A stretch of DNA of 20,000 nt from an uncultured virus (IMG/VR IMGVR_UViG_3300048883_000321) (IMGVR_UViG_3300048883_000321), one strand, 5' to 3'; positions 1,968 through 19,590 are shown, counted from the stretch's first letter. The notes: generated by a model not told the origin, from the sequence alone. Numbers and translations are program-made.

Positions 1968-2126
1968 ACGTGTGAATCTGGCGGGTGAATCTGGCGGGTG
2001 AATCTCGCGGGTGAATCTTGGCGTGTGAATCTCACGTGTCAATCTTGGCGTGTCAATCTTTGATGTGTGAATACCTCCGGGAATAGACTGAATACGTGTG
2101 AATTTGAGACCTCACGGGTGAATCTC
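1968..2126 (+). repeat. Left tandem cluster of the GTGAAT motif (13-14 bp period)
   Basis: CGTGTGAATCT/GCGGGTGAATCT x5 in tandem, two GTCAATCT variants, then three more copies. Confidence 0.9.
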
Positions 2127-2212
2127 ACTGAGGCTACCGGCCGGGGCCGACACCAAACTCTCAACCTCTACTTGAGGGTTACAGTTCGCAAGGGCCGGGG
2201 CGATTCCAAAAT

Positions 2213-2226
2213 CGAACAGGTGTTCG
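2213..2226. promoter_or_regulatory. LexA (SOS/Cheo)-type box CGAAC-AGGT-GTTCG
   Basis: Perfect match to the Gram-positive/actinobacterial SOS consensus CGAAC-N4-GTTCG. Confidence 0.6.
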
Positions 2227-2332
2227 GTCTCGCTATTGTTGCTAAAATCCCGTTTCGGCCATTATAGGTTTCGCCACCCCCGGGGCCACCTCGCATACCC
2301 CGAGAGCCGAAGCCCCCGGGGTTGCGGTGTTC

Positions 2333-2590
2333 CTAGTCCGTTAAGACCATAACTTGAAGGCCGACCGAGCCGGAGAACTCGCCGGTTGTCCGGGTGGAGT
2401 CAGACCAGAAGTGAACGTCAACGTCGTCGCCGACCAAATCGGTGGTCAAGACCATGACGAACTCGCCGCCTCGGAAGCGTACTTGGGTGTCACCTAAGAA
2501 GAAGCGGTTGCCTCCGGGGCCCATTGGCCACTCGTTGAGAACCCTGTCGGTTGCTACCAAGTCTGCGAGTTTTTTGAGTGTTACTTTCAT
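2333..2590 (-). CDS. Hypothetical protein (85 aa)
   Basis: AAAGGAG RBS and a full cassette promoter upstream. Confidence 0.85.
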   Translation of the reverse strand: MKVTLKKLADLVATDRVLNEWPMGPGGNRFFLGDTQVRFRGGEFVMVLTTDLVGDDVDVHFWSDSTRTTGEFSGSVGLQVMVLTD

Positions 2591-2624
2591 GTTTGCTCCT
2601 TTGTTGTTGTTTGCTTATAGGTTT

Positions 2625-2689
2625 AGTATACACTAGGGAACCCCCATGCGCAACCTTTCGGTAAAGATTTCTTTGTGACTTTTGTCACA
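2625..2689 (-). promoter_or_regulatory. Cassette promoter: TGTGA-N6-TCACA box (2674-2689), TTGCGC-17-TATACT
   Basis: -35 at 2648-2653, -10 at 2625-2630. The same layout recurs throughout the window. Confidence 0.85.
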
Positions 2690-2760
2690 GCCGGGGCCGA
2701 CTCGAGCCCCCCGGGGCCGACGACAAAAAAAGACGGGAGCCGAAGCCCCCGCCTTGGATT

Positions 2761-2871
2761 TTATTTTGTGGCCTTTGGCTTACCGCCTCGGCGATTGAAG
2801 TTGCCTGCGCCTCCGACGAACTTGGTCGGTGGGCGTTTGTGGGAGCGAGCCCGTCCTTGATATGCTTTCAT
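2761..2871 (-). CDS. Small basic peptide (36 aa, MKAYQGRARSHKRPPTKFVGGAGNFNRRGGKPKATK)
   Basis: Not in the ORF track. AAGGAGG RBS, cassette-type GGTTGC promoter upstream, hairpin downstream. Confidence 0.7.
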   Translation of the reverse strand: MKAYQGRARSHKRPPTKFVGGAGNFNRRGGKPKATK

Positions 2872-2991
2872 TGTGCCTCCTTGGCGTAGTTGCTTACAAA
2901 GTAAGTGTATCAAAGGGAACAACCAGAAGCAACCTCAACCGGAAACTTTCTTAGATTTCTTTTAAGTTCCCAGCCGGGGCCGAAATCCGTA

Positions 2992-3056
2992 TGTGACACA
3001 TGTCACAAAGAAATCTTTGCTTTGGGGTTGCGCATGATGGTTATCTCTGCTATACT
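2992..3056 (+). promoter_or_regulatory. Cassette promoter (+): TGTGACACATGTCACA, TTGCGC-17-TATACT with TG extension
   Basis: Box 2992-3007, -35 3028-3033, -10 3051-3056. Confidence 0.85.
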
Positions 3057-3093
3057 TACACTTGTAAGCAACCAACGGCAAAGGAGCCAAATC

Positions 3094-3192
3094 ATGGAAT
3101 GCGAAGACTGCGAAGAATACGAAGAAGATTGTACCTGCGGAGACCGACCCGCCCCATGGGACACCCGAGGCGAAGCCAACGGAGACCGATAG
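3094..3192 (+). CDS. Small acidic Cys-rich peptide (32 aa, MECEDCEEYEEDCTCGDRPAPWDTRGEANGDR)
   Basis: AAAGGAG RBS, own promoter and terminator. Start reassigned from the 2905 ORF. Confidence 0.75.
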   Translation: MECEDCEEYEEDCTCGDRPAPWDTRGEANGDR

Positions 3193-3201
3193 CCACCAGC
3201 G

Positions 3202-3225
3202 AGCCTGCCCCGAAAGGGGCGGGCT
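3202..3225 (+). terminator. Hairpin with GAAA tetraloop
   Basis: AGCCTGCCCC-GAAA-GGGGCGGGCT just after the stop. Confidence 0.65.
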
Positions 3226-3475
3226 TCAGGCCCCGGTAGTACCTCCGGGGCACAAACGCGTGTGAATCCCATCGTGTGAAAACAAGCCAGCGATGCGGCA
3301 GCGACGAAAAGGTCGGGCGTGAATATACCCGGTAGTACTCCGGGGCGGTGGCGTGTGGTTTCGTCGATGAAGCCATTGTAGCGTGGCCTACCCTGAAACC
3401 CAACCTTACCCGAATCTTTTCTTTTTCGCCTGCTAGGTTAAAGAACGGTTCTATTAAGGTTATATTACGGTTCAT

Positions 3476-3562
3476 GGTTCAAAGCCTGAACCTGCTGCCG
3501 GTTCAAAGCCTGAACCTGCTGCCGTGTCAGAGCCTGAACCTGCTGCCGGTTCACAGTGAACC
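3476..3562 (+). repeat. 24-bp tandem repeat GGTTCAAAGCCTGAACCTGCTGCC x3 plus a partial copy
   Basis: Units at 3476, 3500, 3524 (degenerate) and 3548 (partial). Internal dyad GGTTCA-N5-TGAACC. Confidence 0.85.
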
Positions 3563-3708
3563 TAAACACCAGTTGACCTTATCCGCTATCTCCGGGGCTT
3601 CGTAGGGTCAGAGTGAACCTACAAGGGCTCCGGTAATACTCCGGGGCCTTTGTGCGTAAATCGGTTGGGCCGGGCCGAGGGCCGAAGCCCCCAGCCTCTA
3701 GCCGTTGG

Positions 3709-3867
3709 TTAGCGGACTGCTTTTTTGAGTGCGTCCTTTTGGGCATCCGTCCAAACGTTGCCGTCAAGGTCGGTGAGGGTCCACCGGTCGTTATGAACGT
3801 CGGCCCTAGCCAACTGGTACGCAACTCCCGCTGCCCATGGGTCTAGGTTTATAAGTAGGTCGTTCAT
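3709..3867 (-). CDS. Hypothetical protein (52 aa, MNDLLINLDPWAAGVAYQLARADVHNDRWTLTDLDGNVWTDAQKDALKKAVR)
   Basis: Not in the ORF track. AAAGGAG RBS and cassette promoter (TTGCTT-17-TATACT, box 3949-3964). Confidence 0.8.
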   Translation of the reverse strand: MNDLLINLDPWAAGVAYQLARADVHNDRWTLTDLDGNVWTDAQKDALKKAVR

Positions 3868-4032
3868 GTTTGCTCCTTTGTTGTTTGTTTGATAAGGTTA
3901 GTATAGCACAGGTAACCACCAGAAGCAACCCCGAAACAAAGATTTCTTTGTGACTTTTGTCACACCACAAGCGGCACCCCCCGGGGCTTGACAGGTGAAA
4001 CGGCCACCAGCCCGTTTAAGGACTGGTGGCCG

Positions 4033-4070
4033 GAGCCGGGGGAGGGAAAGGAGGTAACCTCTCCCGCCTC
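4033..4070 (-). ncRNA. 3'-UTR hairpin with anti-SD loop (ACCUCCUUU)
   Basis: Minus strand GGGAGAGG-TTACCTCCTTTC-CCTCCC, followed by a second hairpin at 4001-4032. Confidence 0.5.
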
Positions 4071-4079
4071 TATTTTGGT

Positions 4080-4226
4080 CTAGCGGATTGGCGAGAAGTT
4101 TAGTTCCTCGATTATTCCGACGAGTTCTTCTTGTTTGGTGACCATTTCTTCGCTTGCTTCGGCGAGGGCTCGGTTGGTTGCCATCATTTTACGGAAGGCG
4201 ATTTCGGTTGGGTGGTCCGGGTTCAT
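4080..4226 (-). CDS. Hypothetical protein (48 aa, MNPDHPTEIAFRKMMATNRALAEASEEMVTKQEELVGIIEELNFSPIR)
   Basis: Not in the ORF track. AGGAG RBS and promoter TTGCTT-17-TATACT with box at 4314-4329. Confidence 0.8.
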   Translation of the reverse strand: MNPDHPTEIAFRKMMATNRALAEASEEMVTKQEELVGIIEELNFSPIR

Positions 4227-4368
4227 GTCTTGCTCCTGTTCGTGTGTTGTTTGCTTATAGGTTTAGTATACACCAAGGGATGCCCGAAAGCAACCCCTAG
4301 AGGAAGATTTCTTTGTGACACCTGTCACAGCACCTCGGGCCGGGGCCGAAGCCCCAACCCGCTGACCG

Positions 4369-4596
4369 CTAGAGCAAGCCCAACTCACGGCAGACAACGA
4401 AGCGCCCATCGGCCATGCGCCGACTTGACCAGCAAGCCACGCCGTCGCCCTCCACATGAGCCCATGTGGCATTTATGGCGTTTTGAGAAGTACGCTCTAC
4501 CTTAAAAAGTTCGGTTCGCATGAGTAGTGCGAGGGTAGCGTTATGACGGATAGCGTCAAGGATTTCGATTTTCATGTTTGGCTTTTCGTTGTTCAT
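4369..4596 (-). CDS. Hypothetical protein (75 aa)
   Basis: AAAGGAG RBS and promoter TTGGTT-17-TATAAT with box at 4678-4693. Confidence 0.8.
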   Translation of the reverse strand: MNNEKPNMKIEILDAIRHNATLALLMRTELFKVERTSQNAINATWAHVEGDGVACWSSRRMADGRFVVCRELGLL

Positions 4597-4751
4597 TTTT
4601 GCTCCTTTGTAGTTTGCTTGATAGTTGTATTATAGTGGGACTAAAGCCCATAACCAACCTCTAACTTAAAGTTTCTTTGTGACATCTGGCACAGGGGCCG
4701 GGGCCGCGGTTCGGCTGGCCGACTCGGTTAGGAGCCGACCAGCCGAGGGGT

Positions 4752-4886
4752 TTAGCCCGCCAGCAATACTATGCCGACGAAAAACGAGCAGTTAACTAGG
4801 ACGTAAAGCCCAACGATAACCCTTGCTTTAGGGTAACCCTGTTGGAACTGTTCGGCTAGGTTTTCTAGTGCCGTTGATAGGTTCAT
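4752..4886 (-). CDS. Small membrane protein (44 aa, C-terminal hydrophobic helix)
   Basis: Start reassigned to MNLST after the AAAGGAG RBS. Promoter TTGCTT-17-TATACT with box at 4969-4984. Confidence 0.75.
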   Translation of the reverse strand: MNLSTALENLAEQFQQGYPKARVIVGLYVLVNCSFFVGIVLLAG

Positions 4887-5102
4887 GTTTTCTCCTTTCC
4901 TCCTTGTTGGTATACCTTTAGTATACACCATAAGGTAGGCAAAAGCAACCCCTAGAGGAAGATTTCTTTGTGACATTTGTCACAGGGGCCGGGCCGCGTC
5001 AACCCTCAACCTCTACTAGAGGGTTAGGGTTCCGCCCCAACCCAATCCGGCCGCGTGTGACATAAGTCACATGTGACACATGACCACCAACCCGGCCGAG
5101 GG

Positions 5103-5297
5103 TTACATCACGACCTTTAAGATTTGGACTGGCACGTGACGGAAAATGGTAGGGTTGATGCTGCCGGTGGGTGCTGCCGTGGTGATTACCTTGCCGTTGA
5201 TTTCTACGATTTCAAGCAGTTCAAAACCGGTGGGTACGGTGATGGCTACAACGTCCCCGATTACTAGGTGCTTGGTGTAGGTGTTGGTTAGTTTCAT
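5103..5297 (-). CDS. Hypothetical protein (64 aa, small beta-rich)
   Basis: AAAGGAG RBS and TTGCGG-18-TAGTAT promoter. Confidence 0.8.
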   Translation of the reverse strand: MKLTNTYTKHLVIGDVVAITVPTGFELLEIVEINGKVITTAAPTGSINPTIFRHVPVQILKVVM

Positions 5298-5396
5298 TTT
5301 GGCTCCTTTGCCGTTGCTTCGTTAACCCCATACTATCGTTGTTTTACCCAATACCGCAACCTCAAACTAAAACTTTTCTAGATTTCTTTTCGGGGG

Positions 5397-5410
5397 CGAA
5401 CGTGTGTTCT
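5397..5410. promoter_or_regulatory. LexA-type box CGAAC-GTGT-GTTCT
   Basis: One mismatch to CGAAC-N4-GTTCG. Confidence 0.45.
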
Positions 5411-5502
5411 GTCGCGCTCCCGGCATTACCTCCGGGCCTTTTCTCGGGGGGATTCGGTGGGCTGGTTTGGCGGTAGCCCATTGACTACCGCCACCCTGCC
5501 CG

Positions 5503-5760
5503 CTATGGGGTCTCAACGGCAAACAGCACGTATGTGTGCCCTTGGCCGTCCCCTATGTACTTAAAGCCGTCAAGGTCGGCGTGGTCGTAGCGTACGACCT
5601 GTACGCCCTTGTAACGGTCTAAGCGTCCGCCATAGGTAAAGTGGTCGCACATGTTGCCGACCCGTGTACCGGTGACCGGATGGTGGTCAACAAAAATGTC
5701 GTATTCAATGTTTTCACCTCCGTTGATAAAGGTGTGGTGAATCATGGCTAGGTCTTTCAT
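5503..5760 (-). CDS. Hypothetical protein (85 aa)
   Basis: AAGGAGG RBS and downstream hairpin at ~5469-5493. Confidence 0.8.
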   Translation of the reverse strand: MKDLAMIHHTFINGGENIEYDIFVDHHPVTGTRVGNMCDHFTYGGRLDRYKGVQVVRYDHADLDGFKYIGDGQGHTYVLFAVETP

Positions 5761-5922
5761 GGTGCCTCCTTAAGGCTTGGGCTACTTGCCCTCCCCCATA
5801 ACGATACAGGGTAAACCAACGATTGACGAGGCTAGACAACCATTCATTTTGGTCATAAGTCACACGGCCAGCGGAGAGTGGTCAATCGGTCACAAATAGC
5901 GGTCAAAAAGTGCTTTATTTTC

Positions 5923-6024
5923 GAAGCCACCATTTGCCCTCTAAGACGTTTTCAGCCGATTTATGGGTGGTAGTCCCATAACGACCTTTAACCGCATACG
6001 CGGGCTATACGTGGCTCTGAGGGG
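5923..6024 (+). repeat. ~90-100-bp periodic element, copy C
   Basis: Begins GAAGCCACCATTTGC and ends CTATACGTGGCTCTGAGGGG. Confidence 0.75.
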
Positions 6025-6146
6025 ATTCGCCTTTTATCACTCTTTGTGACCAAACGACCACTCTGAGTGAAGCCGGGGGCGCGCTGAAAATGCCACAGAG
6101 AGCGGTGGAGCGACCACAAATAGTGACGGGAAAACCGCTTGTTTTC

Positions 6147-6248
6147 GAAGCCACCATTTGCTCCCTACGGCGTTTCTAGGGCGCGCGTGGGGGGTTGTGT
6201 CGTATTCGGCCTAAACCGCTTAGGTGGCCTATACGGGGCTCTGAGGGG
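6147..6248 (+). repeat. ~90-100-bp periodic element, copy D
   Basis: Begins GAAGCCACCATTTGC and ends CTATACGGGGCTCTGAGGGG. Confidence 0.75.
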
Positions 6249-6446: not shown

Positions 6447-6827
6447 ATGATAACCATTCAACACAACACGAATCGGAAAAGTGACGGTAAGCCTCTCCAA
6501 GCAATGGGGATGCGCGCTAGTTTTCTCAAGTACTTGGAGGACGCGGTGAAAGCCGTAGCCACCGAGGGACTGAGCCCACTAGCGGCACTCCGTCCACTTG
6601 GCACGATTTACGCTTGGGCTGGGGCGAAAGTCACCATCCACGTGGCACGGGTTCATGGAGATGTCTACCGCATCTCTTGGAGCCGTCCAGCGGGGCGTGG
6701 AGGCATCGCCACCGGCACCAAGACCGTGGAGCGGGTAGCCACCATACGGTGCGCCACCAACCCTTTGGAGTTCCTCACGAACATCGTGGAGCATCCCGAG
6801 GGCTTGGACATTGAGCCCGTCGGTTAA
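6447..6827 (+). CDS. Hypothetical protein (126 aa), paralogue of 8697-9083
   Basis: AAGGAGGT RBS. Shares HNxxRKSDGKP..A.G.RAS and Y.(I/V)SW.RPAGR with 8697-9083. GAAA hairpin downstream. Confidence 0.85.
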   Translation: MITIQHNTNRKSDGKPLQAMGMRASFLKYLEDAVKAVATEGLSPLAALRPLGTIYAWAGAKVTIHVARVHGDVYRISWSRPAGRGGIATGTKTVERVATIRCATNPLEFLTNIVEHPEGLDIEPVG

Positions 6828-7061
6828 TCGGCAGGGGGTCGGCCCGAAAGGGTCGGCTCCCACCGGGCCCCCGGCAGTACCTCCGGGTTGCGTTCGTGTG
6901 AATCTGTGGGCGTGTGAATCCCGTATGCTCCCGGTTCTGCCCTAGACTGTATACGTGTGAATTTGGCCTCCGGTTACCCCGGGGTGCATAGGGGCGTGTG
7001 AATGGGCGTGTGAATCCTTACGCGACAGTTCCGCCCGGCTGGGGGGCAGGGCGGAACTGGA

Positions 7062-7098
7062 GCAGGCAGAGGCGAAAGGAGGGAAAGCCCCCGCCCGC
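7062..7098 (-). ncRNA. 3'-UTR hairpin with anti-SD loop (UUUCCCUCCUUUC)
   Basis: Minus strand GCGGGCGGGGGC-TTTCCCTCCTTTC-GCCTCTGCCTGC, followed by a hairpin at 7026-7059 with a C-rich loop. Confidence 0.55.
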
Positions 7099-7289
7099 TA
7101 TGGCTTAGTATACAGGGTGCCGTCGCTCATCCTGAGGAGGATGGGCTGGCCATCTTCGCTGAAAATGATTTCCTCGGTGGTTGGTGCCCCGGGGTCGTTC
7201 ATCCATGTGATGGCTTCTAGGGCTAGTGCGAAAGTGATAACCCCGGCGATGATGACGGCCGCGGCCATGACCCGGTCGCCCGCCCCCAT
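7098..7289 (-). CDS. Small membrane protein (63 aa)
   Basis: TAATG overlap with the upstream stop. Hydrophobic N-terminal helix. Confidence 0.7.
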   Translation of the reverse strand: MGAGDRVMAAAVIIAGVITFALALEAITWMNDPGAPTTEEIIFSEDGQPILLRMSDGTLYTKP

Positions 7290-7573
7290 TACAGTGCCCC
7301 GCATTCACGGAGTGCTGACAGGTCAACGCTTTTCCATTCGGATGGGCGGGTGCCGTTCATGAGTGGGTGGACTTTGGTTGCGGTTTTCATGGAGGCATTG
7401 ACGACGATGCCGGAGTGGCCGTTGGTGGTGGGCCAGATGTAGCAGATGTCGCCACCGTTGTAGGTGAATGCCTTCATGTCTTTGTGGGTGTTAAGCCATT
7501 GGCGGGCATCGTCTAGACTGCCGAATGAGTACCGTGGCCGATTGTAGGCTAGGTCGTGGGTTATTGTTTTCAT
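7289..7573 (-). CDS. Hypothetical protein (94 aa)
   Basis: AAGGAG RBS, TATAAT at 7603-7608, box at 7642-7657. Confidence 0.8.
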   Translation of the reverse strand: MKTITHDLAYNRPRYSFGSLDDARQWLNTHKDMKAFTYNGGDICYIWPTTNGHSGIVVNASMKTATKVHPLMNGTRPSEWKSVDLSALRECGAL

Positions 7574-7777
7574 GTTTGCTCCTTGTAGTTGGTTATAGAG
7601 TCATTATACATGGTGGAGGGTGGGCTTGCTACCCTATTTGGTGTGGCATCCGTCACATCTCCCCCGGGGCTCCGTGTGTGTGACGAATGTCACAGAGAAA
7701 CTTTGGGTCAGAGGTTGCGTTATGGTGGTTACCTCCGCTATACTGGGGTTATGACAAGGAGGGAGGAGGTGAAAAAA

Positions 7778-7990
7778 ATGATAATCAAAAAAGACTACAT
7801 CATACTTTGGGAAACCTCAGAGGGCGAACTTGCTGCCGAAGAGGCACCAAACGCCACCGTAAGCGAGTTGGAGTTCCTCATAGAACACCCGCTAGTTACC
7901 GGCGACCGCATCAAAGAGGACACCGTGAAGGTGTTTGAACTGGGCGAACAGGTCTGGTACGGCACCGGCGCACCGCCAGTGCGCATTTAG
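7778..7990 (+). CDS. Hypothetical acidic protein (70 aa)
   Basis: GGAGGT RBS, box 7679-7694, TTGCGT-18-TATACT, downstream hairpin at ~7997-8025. Confidence 0.8.
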   Translation: MIIKKDYIILWETSEGELAAEEAPNATVSELEFLIEHPLVTGDRIKEDTVKVFELGEQVWYGTGAPPVRI

Positions 7991-8144
7991 GCCACAGGGT
8001 CGGCTCCCTCACCGGGAGTCGGCCCACCGGGCCTCCGGTTACCCCGGTTGCGAGCAGGTGTGGAAAGCCGCGTGTGAATCTGGGCTCCCGGGCCTGAATA
8101 GACTGAATACGTGTGAATTTGGGCTCCCGGGCGGGTAGCCAAGA

Positions 8145-8183: not shown

Positions 8184-8333
8184 CTATCGGGTGATGCCGA
8201 AGGCGATGTCCATTATGGCTGCCAGTTCGGGGAGAGGGTTCCCGGCCTTGGCGTACCGTTCGGCAGCGTCTTGGATGGCAGCATCTTCTTTCTCTGCCTT
8301 GACGTAGTCCGATGGGTCTGGTTCGTAGGTCAT
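8184..8333 (-). CDS. Hypothetical protein (49 aa)
   Basis: Start reassigned to MTYEP after GAAAGGA. TTGGTA-16-TATAAT, box at 8416-8431. Confidence 0.75.
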   Translation of the reverse strand: MTYEPDPSDYVKAEKEDAAIQDAAERYAKAGNPLPELAAIMDIAFGITR

Positions 8334-8521: not shown

Positions 8522-8601
8522 TGTGACGGATGTCACATGTGACAAATGACCGCTGTGACACATGACCGGTGTGACAAATGACCGCTGTGACGTATGGCAC
8601 A
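8522..8601 (+). repeat. Five tandem 16-bp units each starting TGTGAC
   Basis: TGTGACGGATGTCACA TGTGACAAATGACCGC TGTGACACATGACCGG TGTGACAAATGACCGC TGTGACGTATGGCACA. Confidence 0.9.
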
Positions 8602-8696: not shown

Positions 8697-9083
8697 CTAG
8701 ATAACCTCGATTTCTATCGCGGTTGGTTGGTTTTCAATGTCGGCGAAGTAGCCGATAAGGTCGGTAGCGGTGTTGACCGTGACCGAGCGGACGATTTCCG
8801 CTTTGCCCATAGCGTCGCTGTAGGTGTTCTTGCGACCTGCGGGGCGTATCCATGACACGCTGTACCGGTCGGCACCTATGCGGGTGATGGATGCGAAGCA
8901 GACAGCGCCTGCGAAGAAAGAGAACCACGAACCTTGACGGTTATGGTTGACGGGGCGAACTACTTTCTCGCCGAGCCCTTTAGACAGTTGGTCAAGACTC
9001 GCTATTAGCGAAGCACGTTGACCGGCTGCTTTCATGGGCTTGCCGTCGCTCTTCCTTTCTTTGTTGTGGGTGAGTGTTGCCAT
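8697..9083 (-). CDS. Hypothetical protein (128 aa), paralogue of 6447-6827
   Basis: AGGAGG RBS before MATLT. Collinear similarity to 6447-6827. Confidence 0.85.
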   Translation of the reverse strand: MATLTHNKERKSDGKPMKAAGQRASLIASLDQLSKGLGEKVVRPVNHNRQGSWFSFFAGAVCFASITRIGADRYSVSWIRPAGRKNTYSDAMGKAEIVRSVTVNTATDLIGYFADIENQPTAIEIEVI

Positions 9084-9238
9084 GGGTGAACCTCCTAGGT
9101 TCGGGTTCAAGGTGTTTCCTTGATAAATACCATGCTAGAGGTTGCGTACCCAAAAATGACAGATTGTGACGGATGCCACACAACAATCTTAGAGTGGTCA
9201 AGCCACCACTTAGAGCGCACAAAAAAACGCTCATTTCT

Positions 9239-9341
9239 GAAGCCACCATTTGCCCCATGTGGCGTTTCTAGGTCACCGGTGGGGGATAGGGTCATTATAG
9301 GGGTCAAAGCCCACAGCGGGCTTGTGTGTGGCTGTGAGGGG
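9239..9341 (+). repeat. ~90-100-bp periodic element, copy E
   Basis: GAAGCCACCATTTGC...GGCGTTTCTAGG...GGCTGTGAGGGGAAA. Confidence 0.7.
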
Positions 9342-9408: not shown

Positions 9409-9649
9409 AGCCCAAAAAACGCCTCCGGTACTCCCGGTTGCATTGGCGGGGGGATTCTGGCGTGTGAATCCTCCGGTGGCCCCTCCGGTGGCCCTCCCGG
9501 TTTATGTTACGACTTTACACGTGTGAATCTGCCCCCGGGTGTGGTGTGTCAGATGTCACAAAGAAAACTTTGGGGGAGGTTGGTTCTTGGGAGTTTGGGG
9601 TGTATGCTTACGGCTGTAAGGCAAGTCAACCAACTACGAAAGAGAAAAC

Positions 9650-9856
9650 ATGAAACTGATTCAAGTTCAAGACGGGAGCCAAATGCTTTTGGTTCATCTG
9701 ATTCATTGCGCTGCCGACGCAACCAACAGCACAGAGCGGGAACTGACAACGGTAACCATGTCATGCGCCATGCTTGAACGTTTGGTTCGGGATGCTCAAG
9801 AAGCCGCCGGAGAGTTTCGGAGTGGTGAACATTGGGCGAGATTAGCCTCCCGCTAG
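9650..9856 (+). CDS. Hypothetical protein (68 aa)
   Basis: GAAAGAG RBS, box 9545-9560, TTGGTT-17-TATGCT, UUCG hairpin at 9863-9886. Confidence 0.8.
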   Translation: MKLIQVQDGSQMLLVHLIHCAADATNSTERELTTVTMSCAMLERLVRDAQEAAGEFRSGEHWARLASR

Positions 9857-11098: not shown

Positions 11099-11998
11099 CT
11101 AGCCCGCCACCAACACCTCCGGGAGAGCAGCAGCCTCTTTCAGAATAAAGTTCACAGCCTTGGAAGCCTGTCCGGCGGCATCCCATACGAACTTGTTATC
11201 ATTGTTCAAGGCTTTAAGCCAAGAAGCGATGTATTCGCAATGGTCCGGCCGAGGGTCAGTTTCGACACCTAAACGATTGGCGAGAAACACCGCGCCCAGT
11301 TCAGCGACCAGTTCCTCAAAAGCGTACCCGGCCCGACCATCGTTATCTTTCTTACGGTCAGCCCGGTTCGCTGGCTTCGTCCAATGAGTGAACTCATGAG
11401 CCACGGTACCGAACCATCCGGCGGGAGAATCAAACTGGACATCTTCAGGTGTGGAAATGTAGTCTCCACTAGGGCTGTAGAACGCCCGGTCAGATGGTAC
11501 TTCTCGCCAGTCGGCACCTAAAGTTTGGAACCACTCCCGGTAGACCTGTACGTCCATGTCAGGTGAGATTATAGGTTGCTCGTACTCCGGTGCGTCGTCT
11601 ACTTGGCTAGCGTGAAACACGTTGTAGGCGCGGGCCATCATGCGTCGGGAGGATGCCCCGGCGTGGCGTGGGCATGGCTTGGATGCCCACTTGTTACAGG
11701 TACCGCAAACGTAGGACGAACCCCAGAAGAGGATAGATGTCCCGGTTTCGCCTTTTTTGACTTGTGCGCCTAGTTTGACCCAACCTTTATAGGTTGACCA
11801 GCGCGGGTCGGCTGGGTCCGGTGACATGATGGCTAGGGTCATCATGTTGCCACCAGAGTAGATTGTCCCGGTCTGCGGGTTGTGGGGCATTCCTGAAACG
11901 CCTTGCCATGGTTGTGTCCATTCGCCCGGCGTGTTGGTTAGCGCGTCTATGACGCTTTGGGTTAGTTTGGTTTGTATTGCTTCGGTTTTTTCGCTCAT
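11099..11998 (-). CDS. ardC: ArdC-family ssDNA-binding antirestriction protein (DUF1738 N-domain plus zincin-like MPTase domain)
   Basis: WxxPW, PxNxxTGxxYxGxN, RWxTYxxWxxLGAQVKKGE, YNVF, AFYSPxxDYI, HEFTHW, YAFEELVAELGA and YIASWLKAL motifs. Confidence 0.92.
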   Translation of the reverse strand: MSEKTEAIQTKLTQSVIDALTNTPGEWTQPWQGVSGMPHNPQTGTIYSGGNMMTLAIMSPDPADPRWSTYKGWVKLGAQVKKGETGTSILFWGSSYVCGTCNKWASKPCPRHAGASSRRMMARAYNVFHASQVDDAPEYEQPIISPDMDVQVYREWFQTLGADWREVPSDRAFYSPSGDYISTPEDVQFDSPAGWFGTVAHEFTHWTKPANRADRKKDNDGRAGYAFEELVAELGAVFLANRLGVETDPRPDHCEYIASWLKALNNDNKFVWDAAGQASKAVNFILKEAAALPEVLVAG

Positions 11999-12257
11999 GT
12001 TTTTTTCTTTCTTGTAGTTGGGTGTGCCCTCATACTACAGCGTCAACTACCGATTTACTCACTTTTTGGTGTGGCATGTGTCACACCGCCCCCGGTACAG
12101 AAAAACCAGACCCACACGCCCCGGTCGAGCCCCCAACTACAAGGGCTCCCGGTTGCATCCCTTAGATGCGTTTTGCGTGTGAATCTGGCGTGTAAATACG
12201 GGCGTGTGAATCTCAGCCCGTGTAAATCTGTACCCGGTCGCCCAAAACCATTTCTGC

Positions 12258-12452
12258 TTATTTCCAAGGATTGACGATTGTTACCTCTGGACGCGCTTCC
12301 CATACGTCACCCTCTAACAGCACTTCGCGCTCCCGGTCATCGGTTTGACCCCACATTTCTTCGGCGATAGAGCGGGCTTCATCTTCTGACCCGGCTTCAA
12401 TCTCTACACATAGGGAGTAGGTGTCCACGATTTCTACATAGTATTCTGGCAT
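12258..12452 (-). CDS. Small protein with YxV...(I/V)EAxSEDEA motif (DpnD/PcfM-like), 64 aa
   Basis: Start at MPEYY, directly after the upstream stop. Motif shared with 13878-14057 and 18751-18924. Confidence 0.75.
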   Translation of the reverse strand: MPEYYVEIVDTYSLCVEIEAGSEDEARSIAEEMWGQTDDREREVLLEGDVWEARPEVTIVNPWK

Positions 12453-12454
12453 GA

Positions 12455-12859
12455 CTACGCCCTCTCGGCTTCGTACATGTTTTCGCAGACCACGCAAATG
12501 TTCCCGGCGTACTCTACATGGTCAATGCCACGGTCGAAAATGTCTAGGTCGCCGTTAGGGTCGTCCTTGATTCCGCAATGGTCACAATGAACGGTTACAG
12601 GCCACCCGGTATCGGAGTACATCATTTGGTCGTACATGGTGTCGAACTCAACGAAGAGGTCGAGGTAGGTGACTTCGCCTACGCCCGGTCGGATGTCGGT
12701 GTCGTTGTATCGGCTTGAGTTGCCGAAATCTTTAACCCATCCTTCTATGGATTGTTCTAAACCGTCAATGAGGTAGAAGCCTCCGGTTGGGGCACGGTGT
12801 AGGTCGCCCCGGTTGACGCATAGTCGGGCTTCGCTTCCTGCTCGGGATACTGGTTTCAT
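12455..12859 (-). CDS. Hypothetical protein with C-terminal CxxC...CxxC (134 aa)
   Basis: AGAAAG RBS, TTGGTT-17-TAGAGT promoter, CDHC/CVVC. Confidence 0.8.
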   Translation of the reverse strand: MKPVSRAGSEARLCVNRGDLHRAPTGGFYLIDGLEQSIEGWVKDFGNSSRYNDTDIRPGVGEVTYLDLFVEFDTMYDQMMYSDTGWPVTVHCDHCGIKDDPNGDLDIFDRGIDHVEYAGNICVVCENMYEAERA

Positions 12860-12953: not shown

Positions 12954-13271
12954 TTATGCGTTCACGACCCGGTACATAGCCCGCCCATCATTAGCCCGCC
13001 ACCCGGTCGGCAACGACTCCACACGCACAACCTCAGCCCCCGGCATGTATTTACACCGGAAAGTTTCAGCCGTTTTACGGTAACGCCACACAGACGCCGT
13101 GTGAATGTCAGGTGTGAAATAGTGGCGACCAAGCGAACGGTAATACGAACCCCGGTGGGTAGCCAAATCCGACTCCCGAAGAGCCCAAACCTCAAACGCC
13201 CTGCCCACTCTGCCGCGGGGGTCAATCCGACGACGCTCATGAACCACCCATCCGGTGGCAAACTGGCTCAT
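12954..13271 (-). CDS. Hypothetical basic protein (105 aa)
   Basis: ATGA overlap with the stop of 13268-13876. Confidence 0.7.
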   Translation of the reverse strand: MSQFATGWVVHERRRIDPRGRVGRAFEVWALRESDLATHRGSYYRSLGRHYFTPDIHTASVWRYRKTAETFRCKYMPGAEVVRVESLPTGWRANDGRAMYRVVNA

Positions 13272-13876: not shown

Positions 13877-13877
13877 T

Positions 13878-14564: not shown

Positions 14565-15362
14565 TTAGAACTTCTTGACAAACTCGGCCATCCCGACCGG
14601 CAGGTGCCGTGCCCGGCCCTTCGCATACAACGCCACGATGGAACCAAACGGGTCGTCGTAACGAAAATCCGTCCGGTCGCCGTTAATAACTGGCATCCCA
14701 TACCAAGTGTCGGCATACCCGGTCTCTTTATGTTCTTTAGGGAATACAACAGCGACGCTGCCCCCGGCCCGCACCTTGGCGCGGATGTCGTCTATTCCGT
14801 GGCGTTCGGTCGCCGAGAAAGTTAAACGGTATCGGCGTTGAGGGTCCCGGTCGCGGTCCCAGTTTTTGGTGTAATCGTAGGTGCGGACGTTCTCCGGTGC
14901 CTCGTAAAATAGCCACGGTGCTACATCCTCCCACGCAATGTCTGACACGATGTTAAGCCTCCGGCCGAGGATTTCGGTTTTCTTGGATGCTTTGACGGTC
15001 TCCCAATGAATCAACGACACCGCGGCGTCGGGGTCAGAGTAGAGGAAACGTGTCCGGTCTATCCCTAGTTGTTGGGCGTAGGGCATGTCTAGGCGACCGG
15101 TGTGGCGTATACAGACTGCCCGGCATTGTGGCGTGGATTGTGGGCATACGTTGTGGCCGGATAGGCGGTGAGGGCTCCCGGTGAACGAAACGGTGTGGTG
15201 TTCGTTTTTGCGTAGTTTAGCATTTGGTTCGGATAGGTATGGGGCTTTAATGGTCCGGTATCCGTTTTGTTCTCGGAATGCGTACCACGCTGCCCGGCTG
15301 TCTAGTTCTGGGACTAGGTCGGCGTGTAGTTTGGTGGGTCGGGTTATCTGTAGGTTGGTCAT
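14565..15362 (-). CDS. Phage Gp88-family protein (Cys triad, radical-SAM-like), apparently leaderless
   Basis: SGxNVCPxSTxxCxxxC, RLNxxSDIxWE, YDYTK, YxLTFS, VINGDxTDxRxxDP and IVxLxAKG motifs. TAGCAT -10 ends 6 nt before the ATG. Confidence 0.8.
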   Translation of the reverse strand: MTNLQITRPTKLHADLVPELDSRAAWYAFREQNGYRTIKAPYLSEPNAKLRKNEHHTVSFTGSPHRLSGHNVCPQSTPQCRAVCIRHTGRLDMPYAQQLGIDRTRFLYSDPDAAVSLIHWETVKASKKTEILGRRLNIVSDIAWEDVAPWLFYEAPENVRTYDYTKNWDRDRDPQRRYRLTFSATERHGIDDIRAKVRAGGSVAVVFPKEHKETGYADTWYGMPVINGDRTDFRYDDPFGSIVALYAKGRARHLPVGMAEFVKKF

Positions 15363-15575
15363 ACCTAGATGCTATCGGGTAAACCACCGGTTTACTCTAT
15401 GACATGTGTCACACCATCCCCGGTACCCCAAAACCCGCTCCGGTCCGAGGGGAGCGGCCCGGGAGCAAGGATGACCAACAAACCTGCCCCCGGACAAATC
15501 AGGGAATACAATGCCACCCAACAAGGGGCGTGTGAATCTGGGAATACAGCGGCCGGCGACTAGGCTCGTGTGAAT

Positions 15576-15896
15576 TTACGCTCGGGCGTTTTCCCACGCC
15601 ATATCCGCAAGCAACTCTGAGTAAAGCCGCGACCACGAACGTTCTACCTTGGGAAGCGTGGCTCTGTCTCGTTTCATCCCAATCCACCAGAGAACCTCCG
15701 ACCCATAGATATGAGGGATGCTTAGTGTTGAGGCCCCGGCGTTAACAGTCACCGATATTCCCCACCATTTTGGTGCGTCCCCGCAGGTTCGGCCAAACTC
15801 CCGGCCGTTAGTTAAGGGAGGTTCGTTGAAGTTAAGGTTATGTATAATCATGTCGGCGGTCATGTCGGTTATTGTTATAACGATTGGGTCGCTCAT
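15576..15896 (-). CDS. Hypothetical protein (106 aa)
   Basis: ATGA coupling and AAGGA RBS. Confidence 0.75.
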   Translation of the reverse strand: MSDPIVITITDMTADMIIHNLNFNEPPLTNGREFGRTCGDAPKWWGISVTVNAGASTLSIPHIYGSEVLWWIGMKRDRATLPKVERSWSRLYSELLADMAWENARA

Positions 15897-16195
15897 TGTT
15901 TGTCCTTAGCGTCAAGTAGCCCAAAGTCGCAGACAAGTTGGGTAACTAACTCTTTTGCCACTTCCCGGTCTAAGACCACGGTGACTTTACCCTCGTCGTC
16001 GTCCCGGTAGAAGCAAACACGGAAGGTGTTTTCAAGGTCGCCGGGGCTAGCGTCCACGGAAGCATCACGCATCACGAACACGTGTCCCTCTAGCCGATAC
16101 TGAGGGAAGGACGACGCATCGCAGGTGAGTTTGATCCCGGCAACACCGGTGTTTAGGTTGACGGTCTGGATGCCGTTTTGGTTATTGATGTGCAT
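15893..16195 (-). CDS. Hypothetical protein (100 aa)
   Basis: Operon context and GGGAG RBS. Confidence 0.75.
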   Translation of the reverse strand: MHINNQNGIQTVNLNTGVAGIKLTCDASSFPQYRLEGHVFVMRDASVDASPGDLENTFRVCFYRDDDEGKVTVVLDREVAKELVTQLVCDFGLLDAKDKQ

Positions 16196-16490
16196 TGTGA
16201 GACTCCCAGCAGTCGTGGCATACCCGGTCGTCGTCTAAGTATTTGACGTTGAGGCTTCCGTTGCCCATGTTGTGGTTAGTTCCACAATGGTCGCAGTTTT
16301 CTTCGTGGCTCGCTACGGAATGCATATAGAAATGCACGGATACGTCTTCGTTGATGTCTCGGAGCATGGACGCTACGAGGTCTACGGAGTCGTTCCAGCC
16401 CCAGCCTTGGTCCGGTGTGCCGTCTGCTTTGAGGCGGTGTATGTCGTCGGCGGGAATGTTGACCCTGACGAGTAATGTGTGGTCGCTCAT
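16182..16490 (-). CDS. Hypothetical protein with CxxC...CxxC (102 aa)
   Basis: AAGGAG RBS, ATGA coupling, CDHC/CHDC. Confidence 0.75.
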   Translation of the reverse strand: MSDHTLLVRVNIPADDIHRLKADGTPDQGWGWNDSVDLVASMLRDINEDVSVHFYMHSVASHEENCDHCGTNHNMGNGSLNVKYLDDDRVCHDCWESHNAHQ

Positions 16491-16690
16491 TGTTGTTCTC
16501 CTTCTGCAATGTCGTCCGCCCACTCGTTAAAGGTCATGCTGACCGTACCCAGATGGGTGTCCGTGTCTGGCGTGAACCCTCGCAGGAACACATCCATAAT
16601 GATGCCCTCTTCGGTAATGTTGATGTCTAGGTGCCGACCATCATCCAGTTTGACGCTCATCCGGTGGCAAACTCGCTTTTTGTTGCTCAT
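16487..16690 (-). CDS. Hypothetical protein (67 aa)
   Basis: Start MSNKK with AAGGAG RBS and ATGA coupling. Confidence 0.75.
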   Translation of the reverse strand: MSNKKRVCHRMSVKLDDGRHLDINITEEGIIMDVFLRGFTPDTDTHLGTVSMTFNEWADDIAEGEQQ

Positions 16691-16941: not shown

Positions 16942-17421
16942 CTAAGAACCAACCTCCGAGGTAGATTTTATTAGTTCTAGGTCGGTTATGTAAAAAGACA
17001 AAGTCCCATCCTCGCCCTCCTCCATCCAATCCGCCCGGTCATCATCCAACACAACAACACGGTTAATGTCATCCATGCGAACAACAAGCCCAGTAATGTC
17101 CTGCTCCCGATGAGCCACCCGGTTCCCAACCCAAATAGCGGTATTCCGTTTCAGCCAAGTCATAACCTCCAAACCGGAGTCACTAGCCACCCGGTCAACA
17201 TCTTGTGCGGAAAACACAAACAGCAAATCCTCAGGGTGATGCTCAGGGTGCTTAAAGAAATGGTCAGGGTGGCACGGGATGTCCAAACCCAGAATCTCAT
17301 CCATTGTCCAGTCGTCGCGAATCAACCCGGCGACCTCTTCTTGCTGAGAGCCCTCTAAGAACGTTGGCCGTCTATCCGGCCCGTAAGGGCGTATTGTGTT
17401 AACTGGCTTGCGGGTTCTCAT
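16942..17421 (-). CDS. Hypothetical protein (159 aa)
   Basis: Start MRTRK by ATGA coupling to 17418-17510. Confidence 0.75.
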   Translation of the reverse strand: MRTRKPVNTIRPYGPDRRPTFLEGSQQEEVAGLIRDDWTMDEILGLDIPCHPDHFFKHPEHHPEDLLFVFSAQDVDRVASDSGLEVMTWLKRNTAIWVGNRVAHREQDITGLVVRMDDINRVVVLDDDRADWMEEGEDGTLSFYITDLELIKSTSEVGS

Positions 17422-17510
17422 GCTGCCACCCCGCCTAGTAGCCATGCGAGCAGGACTAGACCGGTGACGATTAAGGCCACATTGACCCGGCGGTAATCGG
17501 TGGGAGTCAT
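17418..17510 (-). CDS. Small membrane peptide (30 aa, MTPTDYRRVNVALIVTGLVLLAWLLGGVAA)
   Basis: Not in the ORF track. ATGA overlaps at both ends and a single hydrophobic helix. Confidence 0.7.
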   Translation of the reverse strand: MTPTDYRRVNVALIVTGLVLLAWLLGGVAA

Positions 17511-17842
17511 GCTGCCACCCGGCCGTCCATCTCGGCTTCAATAGCGTCAACGAGGTTAGCGAAGTTGTGTTCGTTCAGGAAAATGGAGACATCGCCGATG
17601 TTTAGGACTACATACGGGTCTGACCCGTCTACCTGCCCGGCGGTGACTAATGTTCCTTGGGATGCGCGTGGGGTGTGGATGGTGACTCGGTTAAAGTCAT
17701 GGCCTTCACCCACCCGGCGGAACTCAACAACCTCAACCGATAGGCGGTCTTCGGATTGGTCGTACTCCGAAACCCATCTGGCTGAGGTGGCGATGGCGGT
17801 TCCGCAATCGTTTTCTTCGTGGTCAAATACTACGTTTTTCAT
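17507..17842 (-). CDS. Hypothetical protein (111 aa)
   Basis: AGAAAG RBS, TTGGTA-16-TAGAAT, box at 17934-17949. Confidence 0.8.
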   Translation of the reverse strand: MKNVVFDHEENDCGTAIATSARWVSEYDQSEDRLSVEVVEFRRVGEGHDFNRVTIHTPRASQGTLVTAGQVDGSDPYVVLNIGDVSIFLNEHNFANLVDAIEAEMDGRVAA

Positions 17843-18071
17843 GGTTGGTCTTTCTGTTAGTTGGTTATGTGTTCCCCCCCATTCTAGGCCGTAGAAGTGC
17901 GATACCAACCCCAAAACCCGGATTTCTCAGAAATGTGACAGGAGTCACACCAACCCCCCGGCAGTAACCCCGGCCCCAAAGTGACAAACGTCACACCCCG
18001 AAAAGCCCCCGGTGTATCAGGGAATGCAACGATCAGGGAATACAGGCGTGTGAATCTAGCAGCGTGTGAAT

Positions 18072-18443
18072 CTACACCAACGCCAACGACTCGCTACACA
18101 AATCGCAAGTGTAACCCCACAAAGAATCCTCAGAAAGACGGTACTTGTCGTCGAAATCAGGATGCTCTATCTCATCAAGGTCGCCGCCCACAGGTTCCCC
18201 GGGATTAAGCCGCAACCGGCGACCGACCTGCGGTTGCGCCTGCTCGTTAATGCATTGCCCGCAAATATCGAACTGGGTAGGTGCCGGGTTGAGGCCATCA
18301 GCGTTCGTGGCTTCTTGCCAAGCATCAACATCATCCCCGGCGTTTTCGTATCGCCCGTGTTCCCATGGTTTCTTATTCGTTCTTTCTCTTTGCAGGTTTG
18401 CGTCCCAAGCCTTGAAGAACTCTTTACCTATGTTCGTTGTCAT
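18072..18443 (-). CDS. Hypothetical protein with CxxC...CxxC (123 aa)
   Basis: AAGGAG RBS, ATGA coupling, CGQC/CDLC. Confidence 0.75.
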   Translation of the reverse strand: MTTNIGKEFFKAWDANLQRERTNKKPWEHGRYENAGDDVDAWQEATNADGLNPAPTQFDICGQCINEQAQPQVGRRLRLNPGEPVGGDLDEIEHPDFDDKYRLSEDSLWGYTCDLCSESLALV

Positions 18444-18754
18444 TTCTTCTCCTTCGTCGAACTCCATTGTTGAAGTGACCACTGCGTTGTTGAACCGACC
18501 GCAGCGTTGATGAGTGTGTTGAGTGCGTCGCATAGTTGCGCTTCTCGCATCATAACTGACCATTCGTCGGCAGGTATCCCATTCTCGCACCACCCGCACA
18601 TCAGGTCGGCTCCGCTGGGATGCCCGGTGTAGGTGCCGTGTTCGCAATGGAACTCTCGTCGGTCGTCGTGGCTGTCAACTACCGGCCACGCTGCTTTCAT
18701 TACTCGGCTCGCTTCGGTAGCGGCCTTCATCAGGTCGTGTGAGTTTTTATTCAT
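18440..18754 (-). CDS. Hypothetical protein with CEHG...CGWC motif (104 aa)
   Basis: ATGA coupling and a putative Zn-binding CxH...CxxC. Confidence 0.75.
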   Translation of the reverse strand: MNKNSHDLMKAATEASRVMKAAWPVVDSHDDRREFHCEHGTYTGHPSGADLMCGWCENGIPADEWSVMMREAQLCDALNTLINAAVGSTTQWSLQQWSSTKEKK

Positions 18755-18924
18755 GATTGTTCATCCTCTAGCCGCGCCCAGCCGAAGCGGTCAACGACTC
18801 TGCCGTTGGCTTCGTCCCATTCAAATAACGCTAGTTCTACGGCTTCTTTTTCCGAGTCCGCGCTAACTGTGTGGGCGCCGCCGATGCTGACGGTGATTTC
18901 AACTGTGTAGTTCTTTTTACTCAT
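18751..18924 (-). CDS. Small YxV...VSADSEKEA motif protein (57 aa)
   Basis: AAAGGA RBS before MSKKN. Confidence 0.75.
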   Translation of the reverse strand: MSKKNYTVEITVSIGGAHTVSADSEKEAVELALFEWDEANGRVVDRFGWARLEDEQS

Positions 18925-18947
18925 GTTCTGATCCTTTGGTTGTTGGT

Positions 18948-19205
18948 TTATTGTTCGTGAACAGGGCAAGTATCGCCCTGATGGTTGTTGGGGTCGTCAG
19001 ACGTACGGAACATCCGGCAGTCGCCGATGAGACGGCTGGCGAAGTGCAATGCTTCTTCAACGGTGAGGACGGCCTCAAATGAATCTGATTGGAGGTTGGT
19101 TTCGCCGACCCGTAATGTGATGGCGATGCCCTCTCCCTCGTACCGTTCACTCCGTGCTGAGTTGAAGGGGTTTAGTTCTCCCTCTTTGTAGTATTGTCTT
19201 TTCAT
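18948..19205 (-). CDS. Hypothetical protein (85 aa, ends GDTCPVHE)
   Basis: AGAAAG RBS, TTGGCA-16-TATAAT, box at 19297-19312. Confidence 0.8.
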   Translation of the reverse strand: MKRQYYKEGELNPFNSARSERYEGEGIAITLRVGETNLQSDSFEAVLTVEEALHFASRLIGDCRMFRTSDDPNNHQGDTCPVHEQ

Positions 19206-19393
19206 GGTTGGTCTTTCTGTTAGTTGGTTTGGTTACTCTGTCCCCCCATTATAGGCCGCGAACATCCAATGCCAACACCAAAAACAAGATTTATCATGTG
19301 ACATCAGACACACCGGGCCCGGTCCACCCCCCGGTTAATCACCCCCGGTCCACCCCCCGGTCAATCAGGGAATACAGGGGAGGCCCCCCGGTG

Positions 19394-19590
19394 GCGTGTG
19401 AATCTGCGTCCCGGCGACTGGGCAGGTGTGAATCTGGGTATGCAGGGGGCCACTCGGGGAGGCGTGTGAATCTCAGGGTTTGCAGTCGACGTTCTGGGTT
19501 TGCGTGTGAATCTCAGGGTTTGCGTGTGAATCTCAGGGTTTGCGTGTGAATCTGGGTTTACAGCGCCACGACGTAACCGCCGTGTGAATC
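19394..19590 (+). repeat. Right cluster of the GTGAAT motif, including a 20-bp tandem GGGTTTGCGTGTGAATCTCA x3
   Basis: Seven GTGTGAATC copies. Tandem units at 19496, 19516 and 19536. Confidence 0.9.

Follow-up and report, generated by a model that had tools for sequence, protein, structure and literature searches.

Organisation of the locus

The stretch of DNA analysed here (the window) comprises 20,000 nt of the uncultured virus IMGVR_UViG_3300048883_000321, and we describe a short motif, called A, that is repeated over 17.6 kb of it. The window is phage DNA with many small genes, nearly all of them on the - strand, and curated genes make up 60% of its length. As written on the + strand the motif is GTGTGAAT, and in the gene direction it reads AGATTCACAC(G), because most genes lie on the - strand. 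A holin-like gene (19703-19945, -; phrog_443, E 3e-8) forms the upstream edge of the motif block, as it does in all relatives described below. Recognisable products of the block are an ArdC-like anti-restriction protein (11099-11998, -), a DpnD/PcfM-like protein (12258-12497) and a protein of the GP88 family (14565-15362, -).

The exact motif is found 29 times on the + strand of the window and not once on the - strand. Among 200 dinucleotide shuffles the mean was 0.69 copies and the largest number 3, none of the 200 reached 29, and the chance of finding 29 of 29 copies on one strand is about 4e-9. Shorter or less stringent patterns behave similarly: GTGAAT occurs 39 times on the + and once on the - strand, and the 11-mer CGTGTGAATCT is counted 34:0 (+:-) when one mismatch is allowed and 39:1 when two are. 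The original prediction, made by a model from the sequence alone, had named about 33 one-way sites, which was a fair manual count. With a looser pattern, ATT[CGT]AC[AC]C on the - strand, the window holds 39 sites, 37 of them intergenic and two within genes; the binomial test of this intergenic placement, run with 2 of 38 sites in genes, gave 1.2e-12.

The conserved core, A(G/A)ATTCACAC(G), is non-palindromic and 10-11 bp long. Many A sites are preceded by a half-unit of the form TGCA-N2-3-CCCAG, so that the full unit of the 20-bp tandem described below is about 20 bp. From start to start the sites are spaced by 12-16, 20 or 36-41 bp and never by 10-11 bp; the minimum of 12-14 bp and a spacing of about 37-40 bp that recurs in four genomes are what a protein footprint would give. 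On the gene strand the A arrays contain C at 0.35-0.44 and G at 0.16-0.26. We found no conserved RNA hairpin involving the A sites, and searches of the window returned no match in Rfam at E values up to 0.1 and no tRNA. Readings of the motif as a sigma-54, extracytoplasmic function (ECF)-type or extended -10 element were dropped by eye, as no second conserved element stands at a fixed distance.

All clusters named in the original prediction are present, and all lie on the + strand. The entry cluster (19395-19591) directly follows the holin-like gene in the gene direction and holds seven A sites, of the CGTGTGAATCT type on the + strand and AGATTCACACG on the gene strand, including a 20-bp tandem of three units at 19503-19562. 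At the other end of the block, the exit cluster (1969-2125) consists of nine sites with at most one mismatch in a tandem spacing of 13-14 bp (families D8, D12 and D19); it includes the variants GGGTGAAT and GTGTCAAT and one copy of an extended form at 2085-2106. This extended form (family D12) recurs at 2085, 6944 and 8100, as the original prediction had stated.

Between these two clusters, the A sites are found in smaller groups, in part together with a second, shorter polar motif, (A)CCGGRR, called B. In the gene direction, the first are two A sites 16 bp apart at 18047-18073, the leading one of which overlaps the TAG stop of the gene at 18072-18443 (-). Two more (15529-15577) start at the stop codon of the gene at 15576-15896 (-) and lie 175-213 nt upstream of the GP88-like gene. 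The sole exact GTGTGAAT in a curated gene (12954-13271, -) is at 13098-13108. Three to four sites at 12176-12229 lie 186-229 nt upstream of the ArdC-like gene, from which they are separated by B motifs, a palindrome and a promoter. A single site, GGTGTGAATCT, at 9951-9961 is accompanied by a degenerate copy at 9995, and the two sites at 9461-9530 have three 12-bp B repeats between them. Two sites (8071-8120) follow the terminator hairpin of the gene at 8184-8333 (-) and are themselves followed by B motifs and then by a + strand cassette (7778-7990). The cluster at 6895-7017, with five sites (one with two mismatches) and interleaved B motifs, sits between the genes at 7098-7304 (-) and 6447-6827 (+), and the last single site (3259-3269) adjoins a + strand mini-gene at 3096-3192.

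Just outside both dense A clusters, at 1599-1697 and 19622-19719, the + strand carries CCCCAAAAACA-type tandem repeats rich in A and C (family D1), which are G/T-rich with GGGG runs on the gene strand; no such repeats were seen at the block entry in the relatives inspected.

Conservation and distribution in related phages

Relatives of the window were obtained as uncultured phage contigs from a pattern scan of IMG/VR (G001 to G005) and, among the matches listed, from a scan of metagenome contigs (L198, L175 and smaller pieces), in which the window's own contig was not among the loci listed. Over the 14.9 kb that were compared, G003 and G002 are 99.99% identical, so that G003 is not independent, and G005 overlaps the right end of the window with 96.6% identity. 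Proteins common to the relatives and the window are 50-65% identical, and the GC content of contigs bearing the motif ranges from 0.44 to 0.61. The 20 sequencing runs listed are hydrothermal-vent, marine and seawater metagenomes and one freshwater metagenome, all of them kept as contigs.

Counted over whole records, the motif occurs on the majority and the other strand 20:1 in G001 (38.6 kb), 21:0 in G002 (64 kb), 20:0 in G003, 17:1 in G004 (48.7 kb) and 5:0 in G005; among the matches listed from the metagenome scan, L198 (GC 61%) has 25:0 and L175 11:0. Inside the motif block there are no reverse copies at all (window 29:0, G001 19:0, G002 19:0, G004 13:0). The per-strand count that had been proposed as a check, made here on the related contigs, returned a strict polarity together with a motif that is not uniform genome-wide. 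It confirms the observation and shows that it holds for a whole phage lineage of marine and vent metagenomes.

The forward copies are concentrated in one block of about 10-13 kb (19 of 20 in G001, 19 of 21 in G002 and 13 of 17 in G004). The remaining 29-51 kb of these three contigs hold one, two and four copies, respectively, which is near chance, and two of the out-of-block copies are REIHT codons at the end of a conserved gene for a 95-aa helix-turn-helix protein. The motif thus marks one region, the variable early-gene block, and not genome direction. Its entry is well defined: in 14 of 14 loci an A cluster begins 7-167 nt after the stop codon of the holin-like gene, and in the relatives about 5 kb separate the block from the large terminase gene upstream of it. 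The block of G002 (41499-57814) ends ahead of an endolysin gene, and in locus L187 a six-site cluster stands ahead of an endolysin homologue, so the variable early-gene block is flanked by lysis-type genes in these two cases. The contigs G001 and G004 extend 87 and 226 bp beyond their last A site; they could stop there because the assembly broke at a repeat or because the end is real.

In the relatives the core A(G/A)ATTCACAC is invariant, while the remaining spacer DNA is not conserved and cannot be aligned. Local slippage without conservation in relatives, which the original prediction had named as a possible refutation, is therefore ruled out as the whole explanation, and the pattern points to selection that would act on the word itself.

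Relationships outside this lineage are distant. Neither a megablast of the whole window nor a tblastn of its 202-aa protein gave a match in GenBank phages, and the large terminase (TerL) of G002 has GenBank relatives at 41-44% only; neither these nor the GenBank matches of the GP88-like protein point to a host. A full-text literature search with two 8-letter motif strings found no phage-motif paper among the matches listed, which looked incidental, and nearly all matches listed in a scan of genome contigs were single copies in unrelated genomes, with no lead to a host among them. In a Saprospiraceae metagenome-assembled genome (G006, the genome behind locus L146), AGATTCACAC occurs 166 times, versus once for the reversed control, across many contigs; most copies form inverted pairs 38 bp apart, and some form 10-11 bp tandem arrays at contig ends. 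These copies have the same ten letters as the phage motif and probably represent an unrelated element resembling repetitive extragenic palindromic (REP) sequences.

The A sites are part of a composite upstream module

In the gene direction, the intergenic regions follow a common order: stop codon (sometimes with a hairpin), A sites, B motifs, palindrome, sigma-70-type promoter, strong ribosome site and gene. At the block entry, the A cluster is followed by a B array with five ACCGGG-type motifs (19335-19415, -), an operator palindrome of the TGTGAC-N4-GTCACA type (19297-19312) and the promoter TTGGCA-16-TATAAT (19248-19275, -) of the first block gene (18948-19205, -). The B motif shares the strand bias, with 49:4 for ACCGGG in the window, 47:2 for CCGGAG in G002 and 33:1 for ACCGGA in G004. 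It is found within 150 nt after the last A site in 10 of 11 clusters of the window and in 6 of 7, 6 of 7 and 4 of 8 clusters of three relatives. The palindromes that were detected follow the last A site of a cluster by 73-126 nt, or by 91-126 nt in one of the counts. Further B arrays between A sites and palindrome are located at 9430-9500 and in G002 at 47940-48010. Inside curated genes B is also skewed, with 31 copies on the gene strand and 8 on the other.

The palindrome is present in 18 copies in the window (e.g., 17934-17949, 12070-12085, 4970-4985 and 2674-2689); it is kept in G001, G004 and L198 and found once in the G002 block. Proteins of the CRP family recognise the pattern TGTGA-N6-TCACA, which the palindrome fits. 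In the one module for which we counted the distance by eye (2605-2690), about 28 nt separate its centre, near -63, from the -35 hexamer downstream. The palindrome may be an operator of the early promoters for a host CRP-type or a phage protein. At 8522-8599, five direct TGTGAC half-sites with a spacing of 16 bp abut a full palindrome (family D20) upstream, in the gene direction, of the promoter of the gene at 8184-8333, a place that is taken by A-B arrays in other modules.

The position of the A sites is tied to the downstream gene. They lie 179-269 nt upstream of the start codon of the ArdC-like gene in five of five genomes; for the GP88-like gene this distance is 173-252 nt in four of five, and no A site is found within 300 nt after the stop codons of either gene. 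On the other side the spacing is loose, with the first A site anywhere from 0 to 441 nt behind the preceding stop codon. Owing to this tight distance to the start and variable distance from the stop, the A sites belong to the 5' control region of the downstream cassette on the same strand.

This assignment also accounts for the constant polarity beside flipped cassettes, which the original prediction had pointed out and which held at all four + strand genes of the window (3096-3192, 6447-6827, 7778-7990 and 9650-9856). The adjoining A sites keep their orientation because they belong to the next - strand promoter module, with the + strand cassette intervening between its A-B part and its palindrome-promoter part. 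In one case this can be followed in the population: a variant joint from 7676 to 8020 skips 343 bases, the segment being absent or replaced, and without the insert the A sites at 8071-8120 would be about 163 nt from the start of the gene at 7289-7573, near the usual range.

A possible polar barrier to incoming transcription

Our preferred reading, to which we assign a probability of roughly 40%, is that the A sites are asymmetric protein-binding elements in a composite upstream boundary module of early promoters and most likely form a polar transcription barrier. We infer from the arrangement of the sites both the protein binding and a block of transcription rather than promoter activation or repression. 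The A sites would be the recognition sites of a sequence-specific DNA-binding protein, and the A array would constitute the outermost part of the composite control region of a subset of early-gene promoter cassettes. Protein bound head to tail on this array would stop RNA polymerase coming from an upstream unit before it reaches the next early promoter; at the big entry cluster, the late terminase-lysis operon would be one such upstream unit. The single polarity would then result from a fixed orientation toward promoters on the same strand and not from a genome-wide directional process. From the original prediction, the asymmetric protein-binding signal is retained as the best reading, as the core is non-palindromic and conserved; its tie to genome direction rather than to local transcription finds no support as a property of the whole genome, as the sites are confined to one block and anchored to promoters.

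Several findings favour a barrier to incoming transcription. Strong hairpins (free energy of -20 or lower) are found at two of six same-strand gene ends with an A site within 120 nt, versus 14 of 17 without (Fisher p 0.045, 23 gene ends), and two A arrays, with no hairpin ahead of them, start right at the stop codon. Conversely, the eight cassettes at 2333-5760 end in classical terminator hairpins and have no A sites except the one at 3259. The largest array marks the junction between the long upstream operon, which runs from the terminase to the holin-like gene, and the first early promoter, and the only hairpin there is a weak one (free energy -14).

Other results weigh against this reading. 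The hairpin contrast is weak and falls to 4 of 8 versus 14 of 17 (p 0.16) once the two gene ends with more distal A sites, at 163 and 212 nt, are grouped with the A-bearing ones. Two or three A arrays follow strong hairpins, and the arrays are thus not simple terminator replacements. An array for activation or repression upstream of the promoter would explain the anchoring to the downstream start just as well. No palindrome is located within 250 nt of the exit cluster, and the next gene in the gene direction is about 540 nt away. With regard to the binding protein, none of the 32 window proteins scanned matched a DNA-binding family, and two conserved block proteins that were folded (a 126-aa family and the GP88-like protein) gave no DNA-binding fold. 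The large relatives do encode conserved candidates outside the block, namely the 95-aa helix-turn-helix protein (65-73% identical among them; 25118-25405 in G002), two ParB-N proteins (70-75%; 29185-30501 and 31336-32919 in G002) and an O-like HTH_36 initiator (52-61%). None of these candidates, which include the helix-turn-helix and initiator types of gene that the original prediction had suggested looking for, could be linked to the motif.

Alternative explanations

The same arrangement could be produced without any barrier, if a regulator bound the A repeats, with or without B, head to tail and switched the adjacent early promoter, the polarity being the orientation toward that promoter. 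Such a regulator could come from the host, as a response regulator of the OmpR/PhoB type, or from the phage, as a small winged-helix protein like Cox, Apl or Xis. TGTGAA/TTCACA-like direct repeats are typical of OmpR-family boxes, and Cox and Apl bind direct-repeat arrays. A constant distance from the start codon (173-269 nt), as opposed to 0 to 441 nt from the upstream stop, and the fixed order of A, B, palindrome and promoter fit such a regulator, and the head-to-tail arrangement of short asymmetric repeats upstream of promoters resembles the arrays of P2 Cox, 186 Apl, lambda Xis and OmpR/PhoB. Those arrays are phased by 10-11 bp and occur at one to three places per genome, whereas the A spacings (12-16, 20 and 36-41 bp) do not include that of response-regulator boxes, and the sites occupy about 11 places in a 17.6-kb block. 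Besides, the A-B modules tolerate + strand cassettes of 300-600 bp before the promoter, many promoters of the same type (2333-5760) have no A sites, and the exit cluster has no promoter module nearby. We therefore consider a promoter-switching array rather doubtful, while a share of the evidence is common to it and to the barrier.

An element acting at the RNA level is improbable. Here, AGAUUCACAC would be located in read-through or 3'-untranslated transcripts of the gene strand and be bound by an RNA-binding protein or cut by a ribonuclease, or the C-rich arrays would be a loading zone for Rho. The polarity is indeed the direction of nearly all genes, two arrays start at stop codons with no hairpin before them, and the gene strand of the A arrays has C in excess of G. 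The sites show no conserved secondary structure and no Rfam match, however, and two or three arrays stand behind strong terminator-like hairpins. An exact conservation of 10 letters is also far beyond what a Rho site needs, and the anchoring is to the downstream promoter and not to the upstream stop.

We regard it as quite improbable that the arrays are origins or titration sites to which the DnaA of the host or the O-like initiator of the phage binds. The string ATTCACA corresponds to the last seven letters of a weak DnaA-box variant, the DnaA consensus being TTWTNCACA. This resemblance of the core, which the original prediction had noted, the iteron-like length of the 20-bp tandem at 19503-19562 and the O-like HTH_36 initiator of the relatives, near whose gene no other iterons were seen, speak for such a function. 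In G002 we found no convincing iterons near the initiator gene, which is about 18 kb from the block and has no A sites either. The A consensus misses the DnaA consensus at its first two positions, as the two conserved letters before ATT are AG or AA instead of TT, and carries a trailing conserved C(G) that is foreign to the DnaA box. Initiator iterons are repeats of 17-22 bp beside an initiator gene or origin; the A sites are instead dispersed over about 11 separate clusters per block, without a link to an initiator gene, and their placement follows the promoters. The suggestion of DnaA boxes or iterons has thus gained no positive support.

It is very improbable that the A-B arrays are recombination sites, at which cassettes are gained and lost through short homology or through a strand-specific site-specific recombinase of an integron-like kind. 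The arrays do separate cassettes of either orientation and are all direct repeats. In addition, a population of contigs 90-99% similar to the window (X11) lacks one 20-bp A unit at 19496 and one 12-bp B unit at 9470, so that the unit copy number differs between close variants, and an A site lies no more than 5 nt from the point at which one gene indel between the loci L007 and L028 ends. The same X11 population shows two clean cassette deletions, 3640 to 3981 and 4303 to 4668, and these join repeated promoter modules in the part of the array that is free of A sites. It also lacks or replaces 7676-8020, 9648-9854, 15588-15906, 16165-16686 and 18778-19011. Together, these variants provide direct evidence for a reshuffling of the cassette array in nature. 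Among the proteins scanned, from sequences that are incomplete, there was no integrase or recombinase, and the A sites do not form the imperfect palindrome expected of such sites. A more far-reaching version, in which the arrays are a phage-borne integron-like platform and a strand-specific recombinase inserts and excises promoter-gene-terminator cassettes in either orientation at one-way sites, would account for arrays that separate cassettes, never flip and bracket the block from the holin-like gene to the endolysin in G002. We consider this version highly improbable; in contrast to integron attC sites, the A sites form no hairpin.

Finally, a genome-direction signal for a translocase or nuclease (Chi-like, KOPS-like, a packaging or injection-stop signal, or strand-specific nick sites), which was among the suggestions of the original prediction, would fit the strict polarity, the dense clusters at both block ends and the anti-restriction-type early genes of the block (ArdC-like, DpnD/PcfM-like), such as a first-injected region might carry, and is nevertheless the least probable explanation of all, since Chi and KOPS occur genome-wide including coding DNA, while the A sites are missing from the remaining 29-51 kb of three related contigs or do not exceed chance there, are excluded from coding DNA (37 of 39 intergenic) and are anchored to promoters.

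Comparison with stoperators and other phage modules

To our knowledge, regulatory sites with one direction only are rare, and the stoperator of mycobacteriophages is the one well-studied phage case. If the A arrays act as a barrier, this action would probably be stoperator-like in the sense of an analogy, without membership in the stoperator family; the corresponding proposal of the original prediction thus holds as a comparison and fails on several defining features of the family that we tested. The relevant passages of PMC9283540 describe the stoperators of Cluster A phages as more than 20 short asymmetric sites in short intergenic spaces whose orientation correlates with the direction of transcription, and report for the L5 repressor that reversing a site abolishes repression.

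Like the stoperators of the L5 gp71 type, the A sites are asymmetric, intergenic and present in many copies, with a core of 10-11 bp here and a site of about 13 bp in L5. In the right arm of L5 (43000-52297) the sites lie opposite the gene strand, 6:0 by the L5 pattern, and likewise here. A GP88-family gene is also common to the window and to Cluster A mycobacteriophages. On the other hand, by eye only 6-7 of 13 letters agree with the L5 consensus, and the L5 pattern is absent here. Stoperators are found in both genome arms, whereas A is confined to one block, where it forms tandem arrays of up to 9-10 sites. The A sites lie upstream of the promoter's palindrome and do not overlap the promoter, and the operator-like element is a different, palindromic sequence. 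The A orientation agrees with the majority gene direction, and the genes that run the other way, four on the + strand in the window and those on the - strand in the G002 block, have no flipped A site beside them. When L5 gp71 was searched by tblastn in the window, in G001, G002, G004 and G005 and in six small loci, the best E value was 4.4, in contigs that are 9-83% complete.

A second similarity is to the promoter plus stem-loop (PeSL) cassettes of T4-type phages, which are described in PMC2839356 and PMC4122927 as hyperplastic regions of small genes with repeated promoter/terminator modules and deletions between these modules. The array of the window likewise has repeated modules (families D3, D5 and D6) with deletion joints in them. 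In contrast to the PeSL element, which combines a promoter with a stem-loop, A is an extra conserved asymmetric element upstream of some modules only, and it is absent from the deletion joints observed.

A is therefore a second, unrelated motif with a stoperator-like strict polarity, arranged in tandem arrays within a conserved multi-part module upstream of promoters. If the arrays are indeed protein-dependent polar barriers, they would show how lytic phages insulate early and anti-defence genes that are individually promoted and rapidly exchanged, both from each other and against late transcription, and would offer a compact polar insulator for engineering. The motif is also a practical marker with which the variable early-gene block of this lineage can be located in metagenomes, and this block is a likely source of new genes for anti-restriction and host takeover.

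Other genes and repeats of the block

The GP88-like protein is about 36% identical to proteins of Cluster A mycobacteriophages and has other distant GenBank matches, all below 60%; the cysteines C73, C80 and C84 are invariant. Its structural model has a predicted local distance difference test score (pLDDT) of 89.7, and Foldseek returned weak rows only, mostly TIM-barrel enzymes (E >= 0.03), whereas phmmer against PDB sequences gave nothing.

The family of 124-129 aa referred to above as the 126-aa family has two paralogues in the window (6447-6827, +; 8697-9083, -) that are 34% identical. It is known from metagenomes only and is also encoded once in G001 and twice in G002, in either orientation. 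No match was found for it in Pfam or PHROG, and its AlphaFold model (pLDDT 86) showed no likeness to solved structures (best Foldseek E 0.26, VIA-align Z at most 3.5, no hit in the Atlas).

Two mini-genes have promoter modules of their own, one (2761-2871, -) for a very basic peptide of 36 aa and one (3096-3192, +) for an acidic, cysteine-rich peptide of 32 aa. The long non-coding spacers additionally contain three copies of a repeat of about 103 nt (family D7, 65-72% alike) at 5875-5977, 6099-6201 and 9191-9293. These have no Rfam match, share '...ctagaaacgcc...ggcaaatggtggcttc...' and could be small RNAs.

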